Below are positions 1,622-6,727 of a DNA stretch of 40,238 nt, piece by piece. The translations under genes and the position numbers were made by a program. Origin of the DNA: a bacterium (GTDB lineage Bacteria > Patescibacteriota > Patescibacteriia > JAACEG01); assembly GCA_030641665.1 (NCBI GenBank), contig DAOWHA010000053.1, positions 1 through 40,238 of the forward strand, written 5' to 3'. Numbering within the stretch: position 1 is the stretch's first letter; each line of letters opens with the position of its first letter. The notes beneath the pieces are model-generated. The model did not search any database, had not been told where the DNA came from, and was given only the letters and a program-made list of their open reading frames with translations.

Positions 1622-2488
1622 ATGCTTAATAATTTTAGATCTATGCTTCAGCAGGAGACAAAAACAGCTTTAAAAAAATATAACATTTCCCTAAAGCATA
1701 AATTCGGGCAAAATTTTTTGACCGATGCGAAAATTTTAGATAAAATAATAAAAACAGCCGATCTAAAAAAAGAAGACGCGATTTTAGAAATAGGCGCTGG
1801 CGTCGGAACGCTCACAAGAGAGTTGGCGAAAAAAGTTAAAAAAATAATTGCGGTTGAGATTGACAGAGGATTGGTTAAAATTTTGCGGAAAATATTCAAT
1901 AAGACAGATAATGTTGAAATTATTGAAAAAAATATATTGAGCAGCGAATTTAAAGTTGAGAATTTTAAAGACATTAAAAATTCGTATAAAATTGTAGCTA
2001 ACCTTCCGTATAATATTACATCGCGATTTATTAGAAAATTTTTATCAGACGAAAAAATAAGACCGCAAGAGATGGTTTTAATGGTTCAGAAAGAAGTCGC
2101 GGAAAGAATAACCGCTAAACAGGGGCAGATGAGTTTATTGTCGGTCTCATGCCAATTTTACGCTGATTGCGAGTTAGCGTTTTTTGTAAGCAGAAAAAGT
2201 TTTTTGCCAATTCCGAAAGTGGACAGCGCGGTTGTTAAATTAAAAATTAAAGACTGCAGGTTGAAAATAGATGAAAAATATTTTTTTCAAATTGTTAAAG
2301 CAGGGTTCTTCAGCAGAAGAAAAAAATTGAAAAGCAATTTAGCAAAAGGGCTGGATATTAAAAAAGAAGATATTAATAAAATTTTTATCAAATTAAAGCT
2401 CGGAGAAAATATACGAGCGCAGGAACTAGGCGTTGAAGACTGGATAAAATTTTACTGGAATATAAAATTTAAAAAAAATGAAAAATAA
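1622..2488 (+). CDS. rsmA: 16S rRNA m6,2A dimethyltransferase RsmA/KsgA
   Basis: GQNFL, LEIGAGVG, VEID, ANLPYNIT, MVQKEVAERI, PKVDSA and RRKKL motifs. Start may be the second ATG (1643). Confidence 0.97.
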   Translation: MLNNFRSMLQQETKTALKKYNISLKHKFGQNFLTDAKILDKIIKTADLKKEDAILEIGAGVGTLTRELAKKVKKIIAVEIDRGLVKILRKIFNKTDNVEIIEKNILSSEFKVENFKDIKNSYKIVANLPYNITSRFIRKFLSDEKIRPQEMVLMVQKEVAERITAKQGQMSLLSVSCQFYADCELAFFVSRKSFLPIPKVDSAVVKLKIKDCRLKIDEKYFFQIVKAGFFSRRKKLKSNLAKGLDIKKEDINKIFIKLKLGENIRAQELGVEDWIKFYWNIKFKKNEK

Positions 2489-3125
2489 TAAATATTTAAA
2501 AAAAGATAGAAAAAAATCAAAAACAAACGATAATGTGATTTATGTTTTTATAGATGCGTCAAATTTATGGCAAGCGCAAAAAGCCAAAGGCAGATTTTTG
2601 GATTATGAAAAAATTATAAAATATATAAAACAAAATTTTAAAGCGTCTTTTGTTAAAATTTTTTATTATACTGCTTATCCTGCTGATGGCACAAGAAGTT
2701 ATAATTTAGAAGGAAAGCATAGATTTTTTACTTTTTTAAAAAAAGGGCTTGGTTTTGAAGTTAGGAAAAAGAGATTAAAAAGAATAAATATTATTGATGA
2801 ATATGGAGAATCTATTAAAGAAAAAGGCGATATGGATGTAGAAATAACAATTGACGCAATGCATCATTTAAAAAAATATGGTATTGCGATTTTTTTAACT
2901 GGCGATTCTGATTTTTTATCATTAATATCTTATTTAAAAAAGAGCAATAAAAAAGTATATATATTTTCTTCAAAAAATAATATCTCCGAAGAATTAAGAA
3001 CTGGCGGAGACGGATATTCTGATGTTTTGGATATAGAAGATATTTGGGGCAGAAAATTAAAACGCAGAGAGGAAAAAACAGATAAAAAAATCACCCTCCG
3101 CATGGAGGGTGACCCTAGGATGTGA
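2478..3125 (+). CDS. NYN domain (LabA/DUF88, PIN-like) ribonuclease
   Basis: FIDASNL, EKGDMDVEITIDA and LTGDSDF acidic catalytic motifs. Confidence 0.92.
   Translation: MKNNKYLKKDRKKSKTNDNVIYVFIDASNLWQAQKAKGRFLDYEKIIKYIKQNFKASFVKIFYYTAYPADGTRSYNLEGKHRFFTFLKKGLGFEVRKKRLKRINIIDEYGESIKEKGDMDVEITIDAMHHLKKYGIAIFLTGDSDFLSLISYLKKSNKKVYIFSSKNNISEELRTGGDGYSDVLDIEDIWGRKLKRREEKTDKKITLRMEGDPRM
3084..3112 (-). terminator. Rho-independent terminator, minus strand
   Basis: TCACCCTCC-GCAT-GGAGGGTGA 9-bp stem at 3091-3112, with A7 at 3084-3090 (U7 on the minus strand). Confidence 0.75.
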
Positions 3126-3158
3126 TACCCTAACAGTTCTGTGAATAAACTGAAAGAT
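3084..3158 (-). ncRNA. Putative ~75-nt structured small RNA antisense/convergent to the NYN gene 3' end
   Basis: Bounded by a minus-strand TTGACA-N16-TATAAT (3192-3165) and a terminator hairpin plus U7 (3112-3084). Internal hairpins CAGTT/AACTG and TAGG/CCTA. 5' end approximate. Confidence 0.55.
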
Positions 3159-3164
3159 GATTAA

Positions 3165-3192
3165 ATTATATACTATCTAAATAAAATGTCAA
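3165..3192 (-). promoter_or_regulatory. Consensus sigma70 promoter facing the NYN 3' end
   Basis: Plus-strand TGTCAA (3187-3192) and ATTATA (3165-3170) read TTGACA/TATAAT on the minus strand with a 16-nt spacer. Confidence 0.65.
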
Positions 3193-3219: not shown

Positions 3220-4185
3220 ATGCTGCCAAATAGATTAAAAAAAGGAGACACAATCGGGATTATTACGCCTTCAAAACCGATATTGAAAAATCAAAAAATG
3301 ATTATAAATAACGCGATAAAATATCTTAAAACGATAGGGCTGAATACGGTTTTTTCAAAAAATGCGTTTTTAAAAGACAAATATGGCGTATCTGGCGGAA
3401 CCGCGAAAGAAAGAGCCAATGATATTAATAATTTGTTTTCCGATAAAAAGATTAACGCTATTTGGTGCGTTCAAGGAGGAGAGACCGCAAACGAAATTCT
3501 TGATTTGATTGATTATGAGTTGATTAAGAAAAATCCAAAAATATTTTTAGGCAAAAGCGATATAGATTTGCTTCATTTAGCAATAAATAAAAAAACGGGA
3601 TTGATAGTTTTTCATTCTCCTGATATTAAAATTGGGAAAAAGCTAGATATGGATTTTAAATATTCAAAAAAATGGTTTATCAAACGGATGTTTAATGGAA
3701 AGATTGACAAAATTGAAAAGTCAACAGATTGGAAAATAATTCGCAACGGCAGCGCAGAAGGAAAAATTGTCGGCTGTAATTTAAGTTCTATTTTAAAACT
3801 TGCCGGAACAGAATATTTTCCAAATTTTAAAAATACAATTTTGTTTTTAGAAGGTTATATGAGTGATATAAAAACGATTATTTATAAATTGACACAATTA
3901 AAACAGACAGGTGTTTTTGAAAAAATTACAGGAATAGTCATTGGGTATATCTATGGTTTTCAGGATAAAAAGCAATTACAACAAAACCCCAAATTAGACA
4001 AAGACGGAAATAAAGTAAATTATGAAGATATAATTTTGGATATTGTAAAAAATTATAATTTTCCGATTTTGAAAATTAACGAATTCGGGCATTGCTGTCC
4101 GAACGCAATACTGCCGATCGGGGTTAAAGTTAGATTAGACGCGACGAACAAAAAAATTGTCATTTTAGAAAATTGCGTTAAGTAA
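3220..4185 (+). CDS. LD-carboxypeptidase / MccF-like peptidase family S66
   Basis: LKKGDTIGIITPS start; catalytic Ser (GKSD), Glu (LFLEG) and His (FGH); LPIG. Confidence 0.92.
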   Translation: MLPNRLKKGDTIGIITPSKPILKNQKMIINNAIKYLKTIGLNTVFSKNAFLKDKYGVSGGTAKERANDINNLFSDKKINAIWCVQGGETANEILDLIDYELIKKNPKIFLGKSDIDLLHLAINKKTGLIVFHSPDIKIGKKLDMDFKYSKKWFIKRMFNGKIDKIEKSTDWKIIRNGSAEGKIVGCNLSSILKLAGTEYFPNFKNTILFLEGYMSDIKTIIYKLTQLKQTGVFEKITGIVIGYIYGFQDKKQLQQNPKLDKDGNKVNYEDIILDIVKNYNFPILKINEFGHCCPNAILPIGVKVRLDATNKKIVILENCVK

Positions 4186-4219: not shown

Positions 4220-6727
4220 ATGGATTCTTTAATTCAACAAGCGATTTTTTTAGTTTTCGCGTTTATCGGGGTAATTCTTTTTTTCGCGCTGGCTTTTCTG
4301 CTTGTAAAACATTATTTACAAGCTGGCGATCATCTCCCAGTTTTGTTTAGAAAAGTTGTCCTATTAGTTATGGTGCCGAGAGAAGCGGCAAGCAAAGACG
4401 CCAGTGAAAAAGGGATTACTCTGCAATTAATTCAGGAAAAAATTGGAATAATGGAGACAATTTACGCTAACACAAGCGGATTAAGGGCGAAACGAAGTTT
4501 GAAATCTTTGCTTTTGGGCAGAAACGACCACCTTTCTTTTGAGATTGTAATTAAAAACGGAACTATATCTTTTTATATAGCCGCGCCGAAATACCTTAAA
4601 CAATATATAATTCAGCAGGTTCAGGCGCAATATTCAGACGCGCATATTGAAGAAGTGGAAGATTATAATATTTTTTCGCCGCAGGGATTTATTGACGGCG
4701 TTTATCTGAAATTTACAAAAAATTTTTTGTTTCCGATAAAAACCTATAAAAATCTGCAAGCAGATCCTTTAAACGCAGTTATAAACACTTTAAGCAAAAT
4801 GGAAGATGATGACGGCGCGGCAATTCAGTTCACAATAAGACCGACAAAAGGCGATTGGCGAAGTTGGGGAACTAAGACGGCGGCTGAGGTAAGGCGCGGG
4901 AAAAGCTTAAACGAAGCGGTAAAAGCAAAAGGAGATTTCAAGTCAGAAATTGCCGGCGGCTGGGGAGGCGATTTAAAAAATTCCATTTTTGGCGGGCATA
5001 AAAAAGACGAAATGAGCATTCGCCAAAATGAGCCGTATCGCCCATCTCAGATGGAAGAAGAGTCAGCTAAAAGCATAGAAGAAAAAGTGTCTAAAGCAGG
5101 GCTAGAAGTTAATATCAGAATTATAGTTTCGGCTGACAAAAAAGAACAGGTAAAAATGTATCTTGATAACATCGTCAACAGTTTCGGTCAGTATAATATT
5201 TATCAATACGGAAACAGCTTTCAGGTTTCGCGCGCGTTTACGCAAAAAAAGCTGATTGACGATTTTATCTACCGCAATTTTAACGACAAGAAAAAAATAA
5301 TCGTGAATTCCGAGGAGATGGCATCGCTTTTTCATTTTCCGATCAGCGGCGCAACTCAGATGCCGAATATCAACTGGCTCTCTTCCAAAGAAGCTCCAGC
5401 GCCTGCGGATATGCCGAAAGAAGGAATAATTTTGGGAAAAAATATCTATCGCGACATAGAAACAGAAGCAAGAATAGCCCCGGATGACCGCTCGCGGCAT
5501 ATTTATGTTATTGGAAAATCTGGAACAGGGAAATCTGTTTTGCTGGCGAATATGGCGCGCAGCGATATTTTAAACGGTGACGGCGTCGCTGTAATTGATC
5601 CGCACGGCGACTTGATTGAAGATGTTATGTCCGCTATTCCGCCTGAGCGCGCCGAAGATGTCATTTATTTTAATCCGTCTGATGTTGACAGGCCGATGGG
5701 GCTTAATTTGCTGGAATATGATAAAAAATATCCAGAGCAGAAAACATTTGTCATCAATGAGATGATAAATATTTTTGACAAACTGTATAATCTGAAAAAT
5801 ACCGGCGGACCGATGTTTGAGCAGTATATGCGAAATTCTATGCTTTTGATAATGGACGATCCTGAAAGCGGATCAACCTTGATGGAAATTTCCAAAGTGC
5901 TGGTTGATCCTGATTTTAGAAAATACAAATTAAGCAAGACCACTAATCCAGTCGTGCGCGACTTCTGGCAGAAAGAAGCGGAAAAGGCGGGCGGGGACGC
6001 GGCTCTGGCGAATATGGTTCCGTATATTACGAGCAAACTTAACGCTTTTGTCGCCAATGATATGATGAGGCCGATTATCGGGCAGCAGAACAGCGCTTTT
6101 AATTTCAGGAAGATTATGGACGAAAAAAAGATTTTACTGGTGAATTTAAGCAAAGGAAGAATCGGTGATTTTAATTCTTATCTGCTCGGAATGGTTATCG
6201 TAGGAAAAATTTTAATGGCGTCGCTTTCGCGGACAGATATTCCGAAAGAAGAGCGAAAGGATTTTTATTTCTATCTTGACGAATTCCAGAATTTTATCAC
6301 AGAGAGCATCTCCGTGATTTTATCAGAAGCAAGAAAGTATCGTTTAAATTTAACGATCGCGCATCAATATATCGGGCAGTTGGTTCGGGATCAGGACGCT
6401 TCTATCCGCAACGCTGTTTTTGGAAACATCGGAACAATGGTTTCATTTAAAGTCGGAGCGGAAGACGCGGAATTTTTAGTCAAGGAATTCGCGCCTGTTT
6501 TTGACGCTTATGATTTAGTTAATATTGATAAATACAACGCCTATGTAAAACTGATTATAGATAATCAGCCGACCAGAGCGTTTAACATAAAGACGACGCC
6601 CTTGAAAGAATACGATTATAATAATTCGGAAAAAATTAAAAACTTGTCGCGTCTGAAATACGGAAGAGATAAATCAGTCATAGAAGCGGAGATTTTGAAA
6701 AGAATGAAACTTTCGGCCAAAAGATAA
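4220..6727 (+). CDS. Membrane-anchored TraG/VirD4/HerA-like (DUF87) ATPase of the type widespread in CPR
   Basis: N-terminal TM; RHIYVIGKSGTGKS Walker A; IDPHGD; YLDEFQNF Walker B; LSEARKYRL; AHQYIGQL. Confidence 0.9.
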   Translation: MDSLIQQAIFLVFAFIGVILFFALAFLLVKHYLQAGDHLPVLFRKVVLLVMVPREAASKDASEKGITLQLIQEKIGIMETIYANTSGLRAKRSLKSLLLGRNDHLSFEIVIKNGTISFYIAAPKYLKQYIIQQVQAQYSDAHIEEVEDYNIFSPQGFIDGVYLKFTKNFLFPIKTYKNLQADPLNAVINTLSKMEDDDGAAIQFTIRPTKGDWRSWGTKTAAEVRRGKSLNEAVKAKGDFKSEIAGGWGGDLKNSIFGGHKKDEMSIRQNEPYRPSQMEEESAKSIEEKVSKAGLEVNIRIIVSADKKEQVKMYLDNIVNSFGQYNIYQYGNSFQVSRAFTQKKLIDDFIYRNFNDKKKIIVNSEEMASLFHFPISGATQMPNINWLSSKEAPAPADMPKEGIILGKNIYRDIETEARIAPDDRSRHIYVIGKSGTGKSVLLANMARSDILNGDGVAVIDPHGDLIEDVMSAIPPERAEDVIYFNPSDVDRPMGLNLLEYDKKYPEQKTFVINEMINIFDKLYNLKNTGGPMFEQYMRNSMLLIMDDPESGSTLMEISKVLVDPDFRKYKLSKTTNPVVRDFWQKEAEKAGGDAALANMVPYITSKLNAFVANDMMRPIIGQQNSAFNFRKIMDEKKILLVNLSKGRIGDFNSYLLGMVIVGKILMASLSRTDIPKEERKDFYFYLDEFQNFITESISVILSEARKYRLNLTIAHQYIGQLVRDQDASIRNAVFGNIGTMVSFKVGAEDAEFLVKEFAPVFDAYDLVNIDKYNAYVKLIIDNQPTRAFNIKTTPLKEYDYNNSEKIKNLSRLKYGRDKSVIEAEILKRMKLSAKR

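Follow-up and report, generated by a model that had tools for sequence, protein, structure and literature searches.

The DNA analysed here is a 40,238-nt stretch (contig DAOWHA010000053.1, positions 1 to 40,238; hereafter the window) from a bacterium of the Patescibacteria, or candidate phyla radiation (CPR). At 2478..3125 on its plus strand lies a gene for a 215-aa putative NYN ribonuclease (RNase) of the LabA-like group (PF01936), recognised from its open reading frame (ORF), its Pfam match, an invariant active site and an AlphaFold2 (AF2) model. Directly behind it, on the minus strand and pointing back at it, lies a predicted small RNA (sRNA) gene of ~72-75 nt (3084..3158). The TGA stop codon of the NYN gene is at 3123-3125, and the final ~13 codons cross the terminator of the sRNA. 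We report that the sRNA represents a real and well-supported RNA family, new to Rfam, that is tied to the NYN gene, and we propose tentatively that it serves as an RNA antitoxin of the nuclease.

The promoter assigned to the sRNA is of the sigma-70 type, with a -35 box TTGACA at 3187..3192 and, after a 16-nt spacer, a -10 box TATAAT at 3165..3170, both on the minus strand. This TTGACA-N16-TATAAT site (3192..3165) scores 12/12, the only one to do so in the 2-kb region. The number of promoter-like sites in this AT-rich region (13) was no higher than in shuffled sequences (11.2 +/- 2.9), so the promoter match alone is weak evidence. The ORF list of the window contains no ORF downstream of this promoter. 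Judging by the promoter position, transcription would start at about 3158, which is position 4 of the covariance model described below and is a G or an A in all 27 copies of our first alignment. The 3' end would fall within the U-run at 3090-3084. Between these ends lie helix P1 (3129..3157, minus strand), in which 3157-3147 pairs with 3139-3129 and two inner positions are U-U mismatches in the window copy, a linker (3117..3128, minus strand) with the motif ACAUC at 3123-3119, and helix P3 (3084..3116, minus strand), the intrinsic terminator. The P3 stem pairs 3116-3105 with 3098-3087 around the loop AUGC; its perfect core spans 9 bp (3112-3104 with 3099-3091), the G-U extension brings the total to 13 pairs, and seven U residues follow. 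A U-tract was found on the minus strand only.

An 83-mer of the minus strand folds at -28.1 kcal/mol (z = -4.28), a value that none of 200 shuffles equalled, and the plus strand folds more weakly (-22.1 kcal/mol, z = -3.21). Rfam 15 gave no match in the whole window at the gathering score; in E-value mode the best match had E = 1.2, and none of the seven matches reached half the gathering score of its family. ARAGORN called no tRNA or tmRNA. A look-up of public sequencing runs gave five DNA runs from two studies and no RNA run. A sequence-only reading of the window had proposed a perfect minus-strand promoter with no ORF to drive, an RNA of about 75 nt at 3084-3158 and a 9-bp terminator with U7 inside the last codons of an NYN gene. 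The promoter score and the ORF list bear out the first of these claims. The bracketing promoter and terminator, the fold and the predicted start agree with the second, and the terminator lies where it had been placed.

The whole genome of the bacterium (1.01 Mb) contains only 26 promoter-terminator units on both strands, and two of them adjoin the two NYN genes of this clade that the genome carries. The other 24 are short units without an obvious ORF that may include more sRNA genes; examples are a tandem pair at C22:23899-24052 and C22:24086-24238, a unit at C1:646-739, and a unit at C44:9461-9616 in which the motif UUGUCAUCC is repeated.

The NYN protein matches PF01936 over residues 21-180 with 81.3 bits against a gathering cutoff of 24.2 (E = 1.3e-22), as the sequence-only reading had it, and also matches the PADLOC NYN model PDLC01154 (E = 4.7e-14). 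A PIN-like active site requires four acidic residues (PMC5499597, as far as its available text goes). The window protein has the acidic metal-binding residues of such a site, and D26, N29, D120, D126, D143 and D145 are invariant in all 21 intact orthologues. The AF2 model (pLDDT 82) has the PIN-like alpha/beta fold. A Foldseek search with this model returned the LabA-like protein 2qip (E = 6e-10, TMt 0.77) and the NYN domain of MARF1 (TMt 0.65-0.70), with T5 flap endonuclease lower in the list; a sequence search of the PDB returned 2qip alone, a protein whose function is not known. In the model a basic three-strand insert (VRKKxLKRI...) adjoins the active site. The conserved part of the protein stops at about ...WGRxLKYRxxK, and few loci share the 13 extra C-terminal codons with which the window gene crosses the terminator. 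Bacterial PF01936 proteins were given as of unknown function in the part of a 2017 survey of the PIN superfamily available to us (PMC5499597). A CRISPR-associated NYN enzyme of Bacteroides fragilis is described, in the accessible part of PMC11346440, as a Mn-dependent, sequence-nonspecific single-stranded RNase (ssRNase) in vitro. The intact active site, together with this enzyme, suggests that the window NYN protein is a catalytically intact ribonuclease.

At every one of the 107 orthologue loci that could be assessed, the sRNA gene lies directly behind the NYN gene in convergent orientation. Close orthologues of NYN, at 59-70% identity, turned up in just six of 60 relatives, all from other families of the class and none from the genus or family to which the window belongs. 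At all six loci the downstream DNA aligns with the window through the terminator, the hairpins, the -10 box and the -35 box, and there the alignment ends. A scan of genome contigs gave 22 further loci, in metagenome-assembled genomes (MAGs) of Patescibacteria; a profile search found the sRNA in 20 of them, and both of the remaining loci stop at a contig edge. A metagenome scan gave at least 530 NYN relatives, and the sRNA was present in 80 of the 80 loci kept. One more genome, G191, also carries the sRNA behind its NYN gene. The sRNA profile had no match in 23 loci of distant NYN paralogues, and no intact NYN gene of this subfamily without the sRNA was found among the loci examined.

The distance between the two genes is narrowly kept. 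In 91 of the 99 loci with an intact NYN, the stop codon falls -9 to +6 nt from the 3' end of the sRNA; in seven, including the window, it lies within the terminator, 35-42 nt in. In the one remaining locus it lies 211 nt from the sRNA, with a 165-nt palindromic insert in between; this insert (L123:2708-2872, from a metagenome) has long inverted repeats and resembles a miniature inverted-repeat transposable element (MITE) or a repetitive extragenic palindromic (REP) element.

We aligned the RNA in two ways. The first alignment comprised 27 copies (MAFFT, with RNAalifold) and returned two helices, P1 and P3. The second comprised 99 copies, 92 of them distinct, aligned by a covariance model, R1. 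In the 92 distinct copies 98.6% of cells were paired and 12 of 21 pairs showed compensatory changes, figures to be read with the caution that a model-fitted alignment favours the structure by construction. Double-change cells numbered 163, against 33 +/- 9.6 in shuffles (none of 500 reached 163) and 2-23 in controls with slid pairing partners. The 27-copy MAFFT alignment agrees, with 60 double-change cells where 15.2 +/- 4.1 were expected. Both helices contribute: five of nine pairs in P1 (97% of cells paired) and seven of 12 in P3 (99.8%) have compensatory changes. Pairing is also strand-specific, with 552 of 563 cells pairing on the minus strand and 440 on the opposite strand, the set including 116 G-U cells. 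These results demonstrate that the RNA fold belongs to the minus strand.

The ~12-nt linker is mostly single-stranded; all 92 distinct copies keep its ACAUC unchanged, and the flanking positions vary. The promoter is kept as well: it scores at least 9/12 in 83 of 91 distinct upstream regions, the -35 box is TTGACA in 41 and TTGACT in 24 of them with the TTGAC core retained, and the end of the -10 box sits 3 nt ahead of model position 1 in 86 of 91. In the window, R1 matches 3083-3161 with 87.4 bits, its single match in the genome. Of 151 genomes taken from the class, 12 gave strong matches, as did two of 151 in a phylum sample, the window genome being included in both counts. Weak matches (29-35 bits) in five genomes of the phylum sample lie away from NYN genes and were taken as chance.

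The conservation bears unevenly on the hairpins that had been read from the window sequence. CAGTT/AACTG is the core of the covarying helix P1. The second hairpin, TAGG/CCTA, which is the UAGGGU/AUCCUA hairpin of the linker, is present in the window copy only as a local feature; in the family its positions pair in 72.6% of cells against 72.7% in shuffles, with no compensatory change among the 92 distinct copies, and we rejected it as a family hairpin. The duplicated ACCCTA is likewise present in the window and only partly conserved. The search of homologues that the sequence-only reading had proposed found the reverse promoter, the terminator and the covarying helices conserved downstream of the NYN gene, in the layout of all 107 assessable loci. 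Its view of a self-contained NYN-sRNA cassette is upheld by the strict linkage, the conserved promoter, fold and terminator, and the variable flanks. Neither Rfam nor the literature that we searched holds a named system of this form, as it had also supposed.

Two other explanations of the conserved segment were tried and rejected. A mini-ORF on the NYN strand, with an ATG and a stop codon, is present in 87 of 92 copies, and the column frequencies alone predict ~86, so there is no signal; the stops are TAA in 63, TGA in 19 and TAG in five copies, and in the window the mini-ORF (3119-3125) is simply the last codon and stop of NYN. An integron attC-like site or a transposon end was set aside because there is one copy per genome, promoter and U-tract are conserved, and no recombinase is consistently associated.

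The flanking genes are different at almost all loci and occurrence is patchy, so the NYN gene and the sRNA gene form a self-contained two-gene cassette that moves horizontally. The pair is the only unit that stays the same. Among the neighbours are rsmA, a staphylococcal-type nuclease, CysRS, GpsA, MacB/FtsX, a glycosyltransferase, RadC, a ParE toxin, QueA, MgsA and two integrases, and DNA methylase or restriction-modification genes at three loci. In the window the upstream neighbour is rsmA/ksgA (1622-2488), whose 3' end is overlapped by 11 nt by the start of NYN, and the next gene downstream encodes an LD-carboxypeptidase (3220-4185). The region is further flanked by a gene for a 330-aa multi-pass membrane protein without a Pfam match (538-1530) and by one whose 835-aa product contains an ATPase region of the VirD4/TraG coupling-protein type (4220-6727; T4SS-DNA_transf, 1.6e-9). 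A search for a phage origin gave no relatives in the viral contig collection. Some relatives carry 6-7 NYN matches in genomes of 0.7-0.9 Mb.

We then classified the NYN gene, after manual checks, in 111 sRNA-bearing loci (12 of them duplicates of others). It was intact in 101, disrupted in nine and cut by a contig edge in one. The disruptions are in-frame stops (L042, L044, L089), N-terminal losses (L049, L051, L057, L063) and frameshifts (L052, L058), and the sRNA in these nine loci keeps 77-90 bits. The two genes also differ in their promoters. A site of at least 10/12 was found within 160 nt upstream of NYN in 13 of 84 loci, against four of 84 in shuffles; NYN has no conserved promoter of its own, whereas the sRNA promoter is conserved and near-consensus. 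No plus-strand terminator was found between the NYN stop and the sRNA gene.

Three observations on single loci are added here. In L063 (1979-2440, genome G156) the NYN remnant, the C-terminal 81 aa, adjoins a 153-aa ORF that has a DUF3800-like look and no Pfam match at 1e-5. In L003 (178-1677, genome G030) a 499-aa ORF joins the NYN frame to an upstream alpha/beta-hydrolase domain, maybe a fusion or a missed stop. In genome G155 the 3' part of the sRNA (linker and terminator) stands at the ends of contigs C29 and C24 (L065:1-59 and L066:1-63) beside rfbD-like and rfbB-like genes, without NYN, and may reflect assembly overlap or a cassette remnant.

If the window NYN and its orthologues are called class 1, at least two further NYN subfamilies carry, by the same kind of comparison, different predicted sRNAs in the same convergent geometry. 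In class 2, an RNA of ~60 nt lies behind NYN paralogues that are 35-41% identical to the window protein (loci L155-L159, the same places as L009-L011). A promoter (e.g. TTGACA-N16-TATACT) precedes a covarying hairpin, after which come the linker GGCGGAAC and a terminator; this last element is also scored as such on the NYN strand. The 3' end of the RNA lies ~3-5 nt from the NYN stop (offsets about -3 to -5 nt), and six of 17 pairs have compensatory changes, counted on five copies only. With a class 2 NYN protein as query, 16 of 21 loci had a convergent promoter-terminator unit, three more were added by a pattern search, and two were left unassigned; a single-protein scan with the same class returned the query itself only. 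Genome G033 has two class 2 NYN genes ~0.9 kb apart.

Class 3 has a hairpin CUCUGGRGUAYYC...GRRUAGCUCCAGAUU followed by a U-run, with compensatory changes in six of 12 pairs, and the conserved motif GCUCCAGAUU. It occurs in the window genome itself, where a second NYN gene on contig C28 (locus L160; G000:C28:22460-22942, minus strand) encodes a protein 37% identical to the window NYN. The class 3 sRNA lies there on the plus strand at about L160:1418-1487, with a TTGACA-N16-TATTAT promoter, a CUCUAGGGAAUC...GAUUGCUCUAGAUU hairpin and a terminator. Shorter RNAs with the motif AUCAUCC lie behind other NYN paralogues (L164, L165). Among the 23 loci of distant paralogues mentioned above, a scripted search detected a convergent promoter-terminator unit at five and not at the other 18.

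We favour, tentatively and at a little under even odds, the reading that the sRNA is a dedicated negative regulator of NYN, an RNA antitoxin that acts mainly as a cis-antisense RNA at the 3' end, in the manner of type I toxin-antitoxin pairs. The sRNA would be transcribed from its near-consensus sigma-70 promoter as P1, the ACAUC linker and a terminator next to or over the NYN stop. With no plus-strand terminator after NYN, the NYN transcripts would run into the sRNA gene and carry a perfect complement of the sRNA. Abundant sRNA would then pair with the 3' end of the NYN transcript, RNA polymerases on the two genes would collide head-on, and productive NYN mRNA would be removed, as in the type I pairs with 3' overlap. 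A cis-antisense mode is favoured because the convergent geometry is kept across unrelated RNA classes, no terminator intervenes in class 1, and the promoters differ in strength. For this reading we infer expression of the sRNA, damage by NYN if it is left uncontrolled, and a lowering of NYN activity by the RNA rather than a rise; harm from NYN is suggested by its intact active site and by the nonspecific ssRNase activity of a bacterial NYN enzyme. Indirect evidence for a toxin and its antidote comes from the nine of 111 loci in which NYN is disrupted beside a retained sRNA, and from the failure to find an intact NYN without one.

Several points weigh against an antisense antitoxin. In the window the terminator covers the last ~13 NYN codons, but in most loci the sRNA does not overlap the coding region of NYN, and the overlap there would depend on the 3' untranslated region (UTR) of the NYN mRNA; any overlap past the terminator is presumed. 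A purely cis-antisense mode leaves the invariant ACAUC, the class-specific linker motifs and the selection on P1 unexplained. Since an antisense RNA has no need of an invariant linker, the linker points to a second contact, for which the NYN protein is the simplest candidate. The toxins that define type I are membrane peptides of small size, and a 215-aa soluble NYN protein is not one of them. The intact sRNA in the nine loci with a broken NYN could equally mean that the sRNA has a use of its own, and some of the frameshifts and stops, coming from MAGs, may be assembly errors. Finally, antisense RNAs at a 3' end can also act as stabilisers, GadY being an example.

We also asked whether the linker or the whole sRNA pairs elsewhere in the NYN mRNA. 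RNAduplex placed the best site for ACAUCC, in several loci, at the complementary GGAUGU in the M-D-V codons of NYN. The motif could be placed in 26 loci, L007 being left out because its match lay elsewhere. Their Asp codon is GAT (18 loci) or GAC (eight loci); the pairing was rejected because this codon varies while its proposed partner, an A of the motif, is invariant. Pairing of the sRNA with the 5' region of its own NYN gene was no better than with others (mean duplex energy -24.42 for cognate and -24.34 for non-cognate pairs; Mann-Whitney p = 0.47; 45 of 84 loci) and was rejected too.

The failure of both pairing ideas to give the linker a partner in the NYN mRNA is one of the points in favour of a second reading, possible in our view though on the unlikely side, in which the sRNA binds the NYN protein as the RNAs of type III systems bind their toxins. 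The ACAUC linker would sit in or near the active site as a pseudo-substrate and keep the nuclease inactive, and the convergent position would merely hold the pair together. Such binding accords with a linker that is invariant in 92 of 92 copies amid variable neighbours, with a P1 maintained through compensatory changes, with the basic three-strand insert beside the active site in the AF2 model, and with the finding that each NYN subfamily has its own RNA and motif (GGCGGAAC in class 2, GCUCCAGAUU in class 3), as cognate recognition predicts. However, a protein-binding RNA need not be convergent or end at the stop codon, yet this geometry is kept across classes. Known antitoxins of this type are tandem repeats upstream on the same strand, whereas here there is one copy. 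Antisense action and protein binding can coexist, and the RNA of the antisense reading possibly binds the protein as well.

It is unlikely, in our judgement, that the sRNA is a positive partner of NYN. As such it would be a cofactor, or would direct NYN, as a guide or specificity subunit, to RNAs that are complementary to the linker, or would stabilise the NYN mRNA in the manner of GadY. The strict co-inheritance of the two genes and the class-specific motifs would fit such a role, the conserved single-stranded 5-6-mer between two hairpins resembles the seed of an sRNA, and an sRNA kept beside a broken NYN is neutral here. But an invariant seed of 5-6 nt is too short for specific guiding, no target can be named, a strong sRNA promoter against no conserved NYN promoter is the pattern of an antitoxin and its toxin, and the frequent inactivation of NYN (9/111) suggests a costly enzyme. 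A wider form of the idea, to which we give a slim chance, takes the NYN nucleases of the clade to be ribonucleoprotein enzymes: every subfamily would carry an sRNA of its own, and the single-stranded motif of that sRNA would set what is cut or sensed.

We consider it slightly less probable still that the sRNA merely travels with NYN and has an unrelated function, as a trans-acting regulator or as machinery or a target site for movement of the cassette. The sRNA does outlive NYN disruption in nine loci, the partial copies in G155 stand beside rfbB/rfbD-like genes without NYN, and the end of the cassette coincides with the sRNA promoter. On the other hand, 107 of 107 assessable orthologue loci tie the RNA to NYN or to an NYN remnant in one fixed geometry, there is one copy per genome with no recombinase consistently nearby, and other NYN subfamilies hold other sRNAs at the same place; hitch-hiking would not predict several RNA classes matched to protein subfamilies. 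The notion that there is no RNA gene at all, only a chance promoter match beside a terminator or 3'-UTR hairpin of the NYN mRNA, can draw on an AT-rich genome in which promoter-like sites are as frequent as in shuffles (13 vs 11.2) and on a hairpin that folds on the plus strand also, but is scarcely tenable given a promoter whose sequence, spacing and position are conserved in 83-86 of 91 distinct loci, a fold made strand-specific by 116 G-U cells with a U-tract on the minus strand only, and just 26 promoter-terminator units genome-wide, two of them adjoining the two NYN genes of the clade.

Among known systems, the closest in working to the antisense reading are the type I pairs with overlapping 3' ends, such as txpA/RatA and bsrG/SR4 of Bacillus subtilis and fst/RNA II of the Enterococcus faecalis par locus. 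Common to both would be a short, abundant antisense RNA read towards the toxin gene and transcripts that meet at their 3' ends or a shared terminator; a weak or absent toxin promoter and a small self-contained cassette of patchy distribution are shared as well. Type I toxins, however, are hydrophobic peptides of <60 aa, whereas the candidate toxin here is a soluble NYN protein of 190-215 aa; the RNA here has an invariant single-stranded motif and covarying helices across classes of bacteria, and the overlap stops short of the coding region in most loci. With the type III systems (ToxIN, CptIN, TenpIN) the cassette shares an endoribonuclease, a predicted one here, with a dedicated structured RNA and no protein antitoxin, several protein families each with a cognate RNA, and mobile genes, there often linked to defence. 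It differs from them in that their toxins have a Kid/MazF-like fold and ours is a PIN-like NYN, and in that their RNAs are toxin-processed tandem repeats upstream on the same strand, whereas ours is a single-unit RNA without repeats, convergent, downstream, and with its own promoter and terminator.

VapBC systems of type II likewise have a PIN-like RNase toxin and many paralogues per small genome, but the antitoxin that neutralises VapC is a protein whose gene lies upstream in the same operon, and no such ORF is present here. GadY/gadX resembles the cassette in having an sRNA, encoded in cis, with complementarity to the 3' end of the mRNA next to it; GadY, however, stabilises its target and is a chromosomal regulator outside any mobile nuclease cassette. 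The protein itself agrees in domain, fold and acidic active site with LabA-like NYN proteins (PF01936/COG1432; 2qip, VPA0982) and, going by the portion of PMC11346440 at hand, with the B. fragilis NYN enzyme. It differs from other LabA-like NYN proteins in that its subfamily is CPR-specific and cassette-borne, and the accessible portions of PMC11346440 and of the PF01936 survey (PMC5499597) mention no partner RNA gene. A full-text literature search, in which subscription journals lay outside the coverage and some sources were open only in part, gave no link between NYN proteins and an RNA antitoxin of type I or type III, in Patescibacteria/CPR or elsewhere.

The RNA families described here are well supported, and Rfam lacks them. 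What the abundant bacterial PF01936 NYN proteins do can be approached directly through a strictly linked partner RNA, and the sigma-70 consensus promoters should allow direct tests of the cassette in E. coli. Should the RNA neutralise the nuclease, the pair would be a new kind of RNA antitoxin system that combines a PIN-like toxin, type I geometry and type III-like RNA features. If the ribonucleoprotein reading were true, it would be an RNA-programmed RNase or defence module unrelated to CRISPR, diversified in Patescibacteria into several classes of cognate protein and RNA. With at least 530 metagenome relatives, class 1 NYN is widespread, and three or more protein-RNA classes have arisen on the same theme. 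CPR bacteria have few known defence systems. NYN genes present in multiple copies (up to 6-7 matches) in genomes of 0.7-1.3 Mb would bear on how CPR genomes are stabilised or defended.

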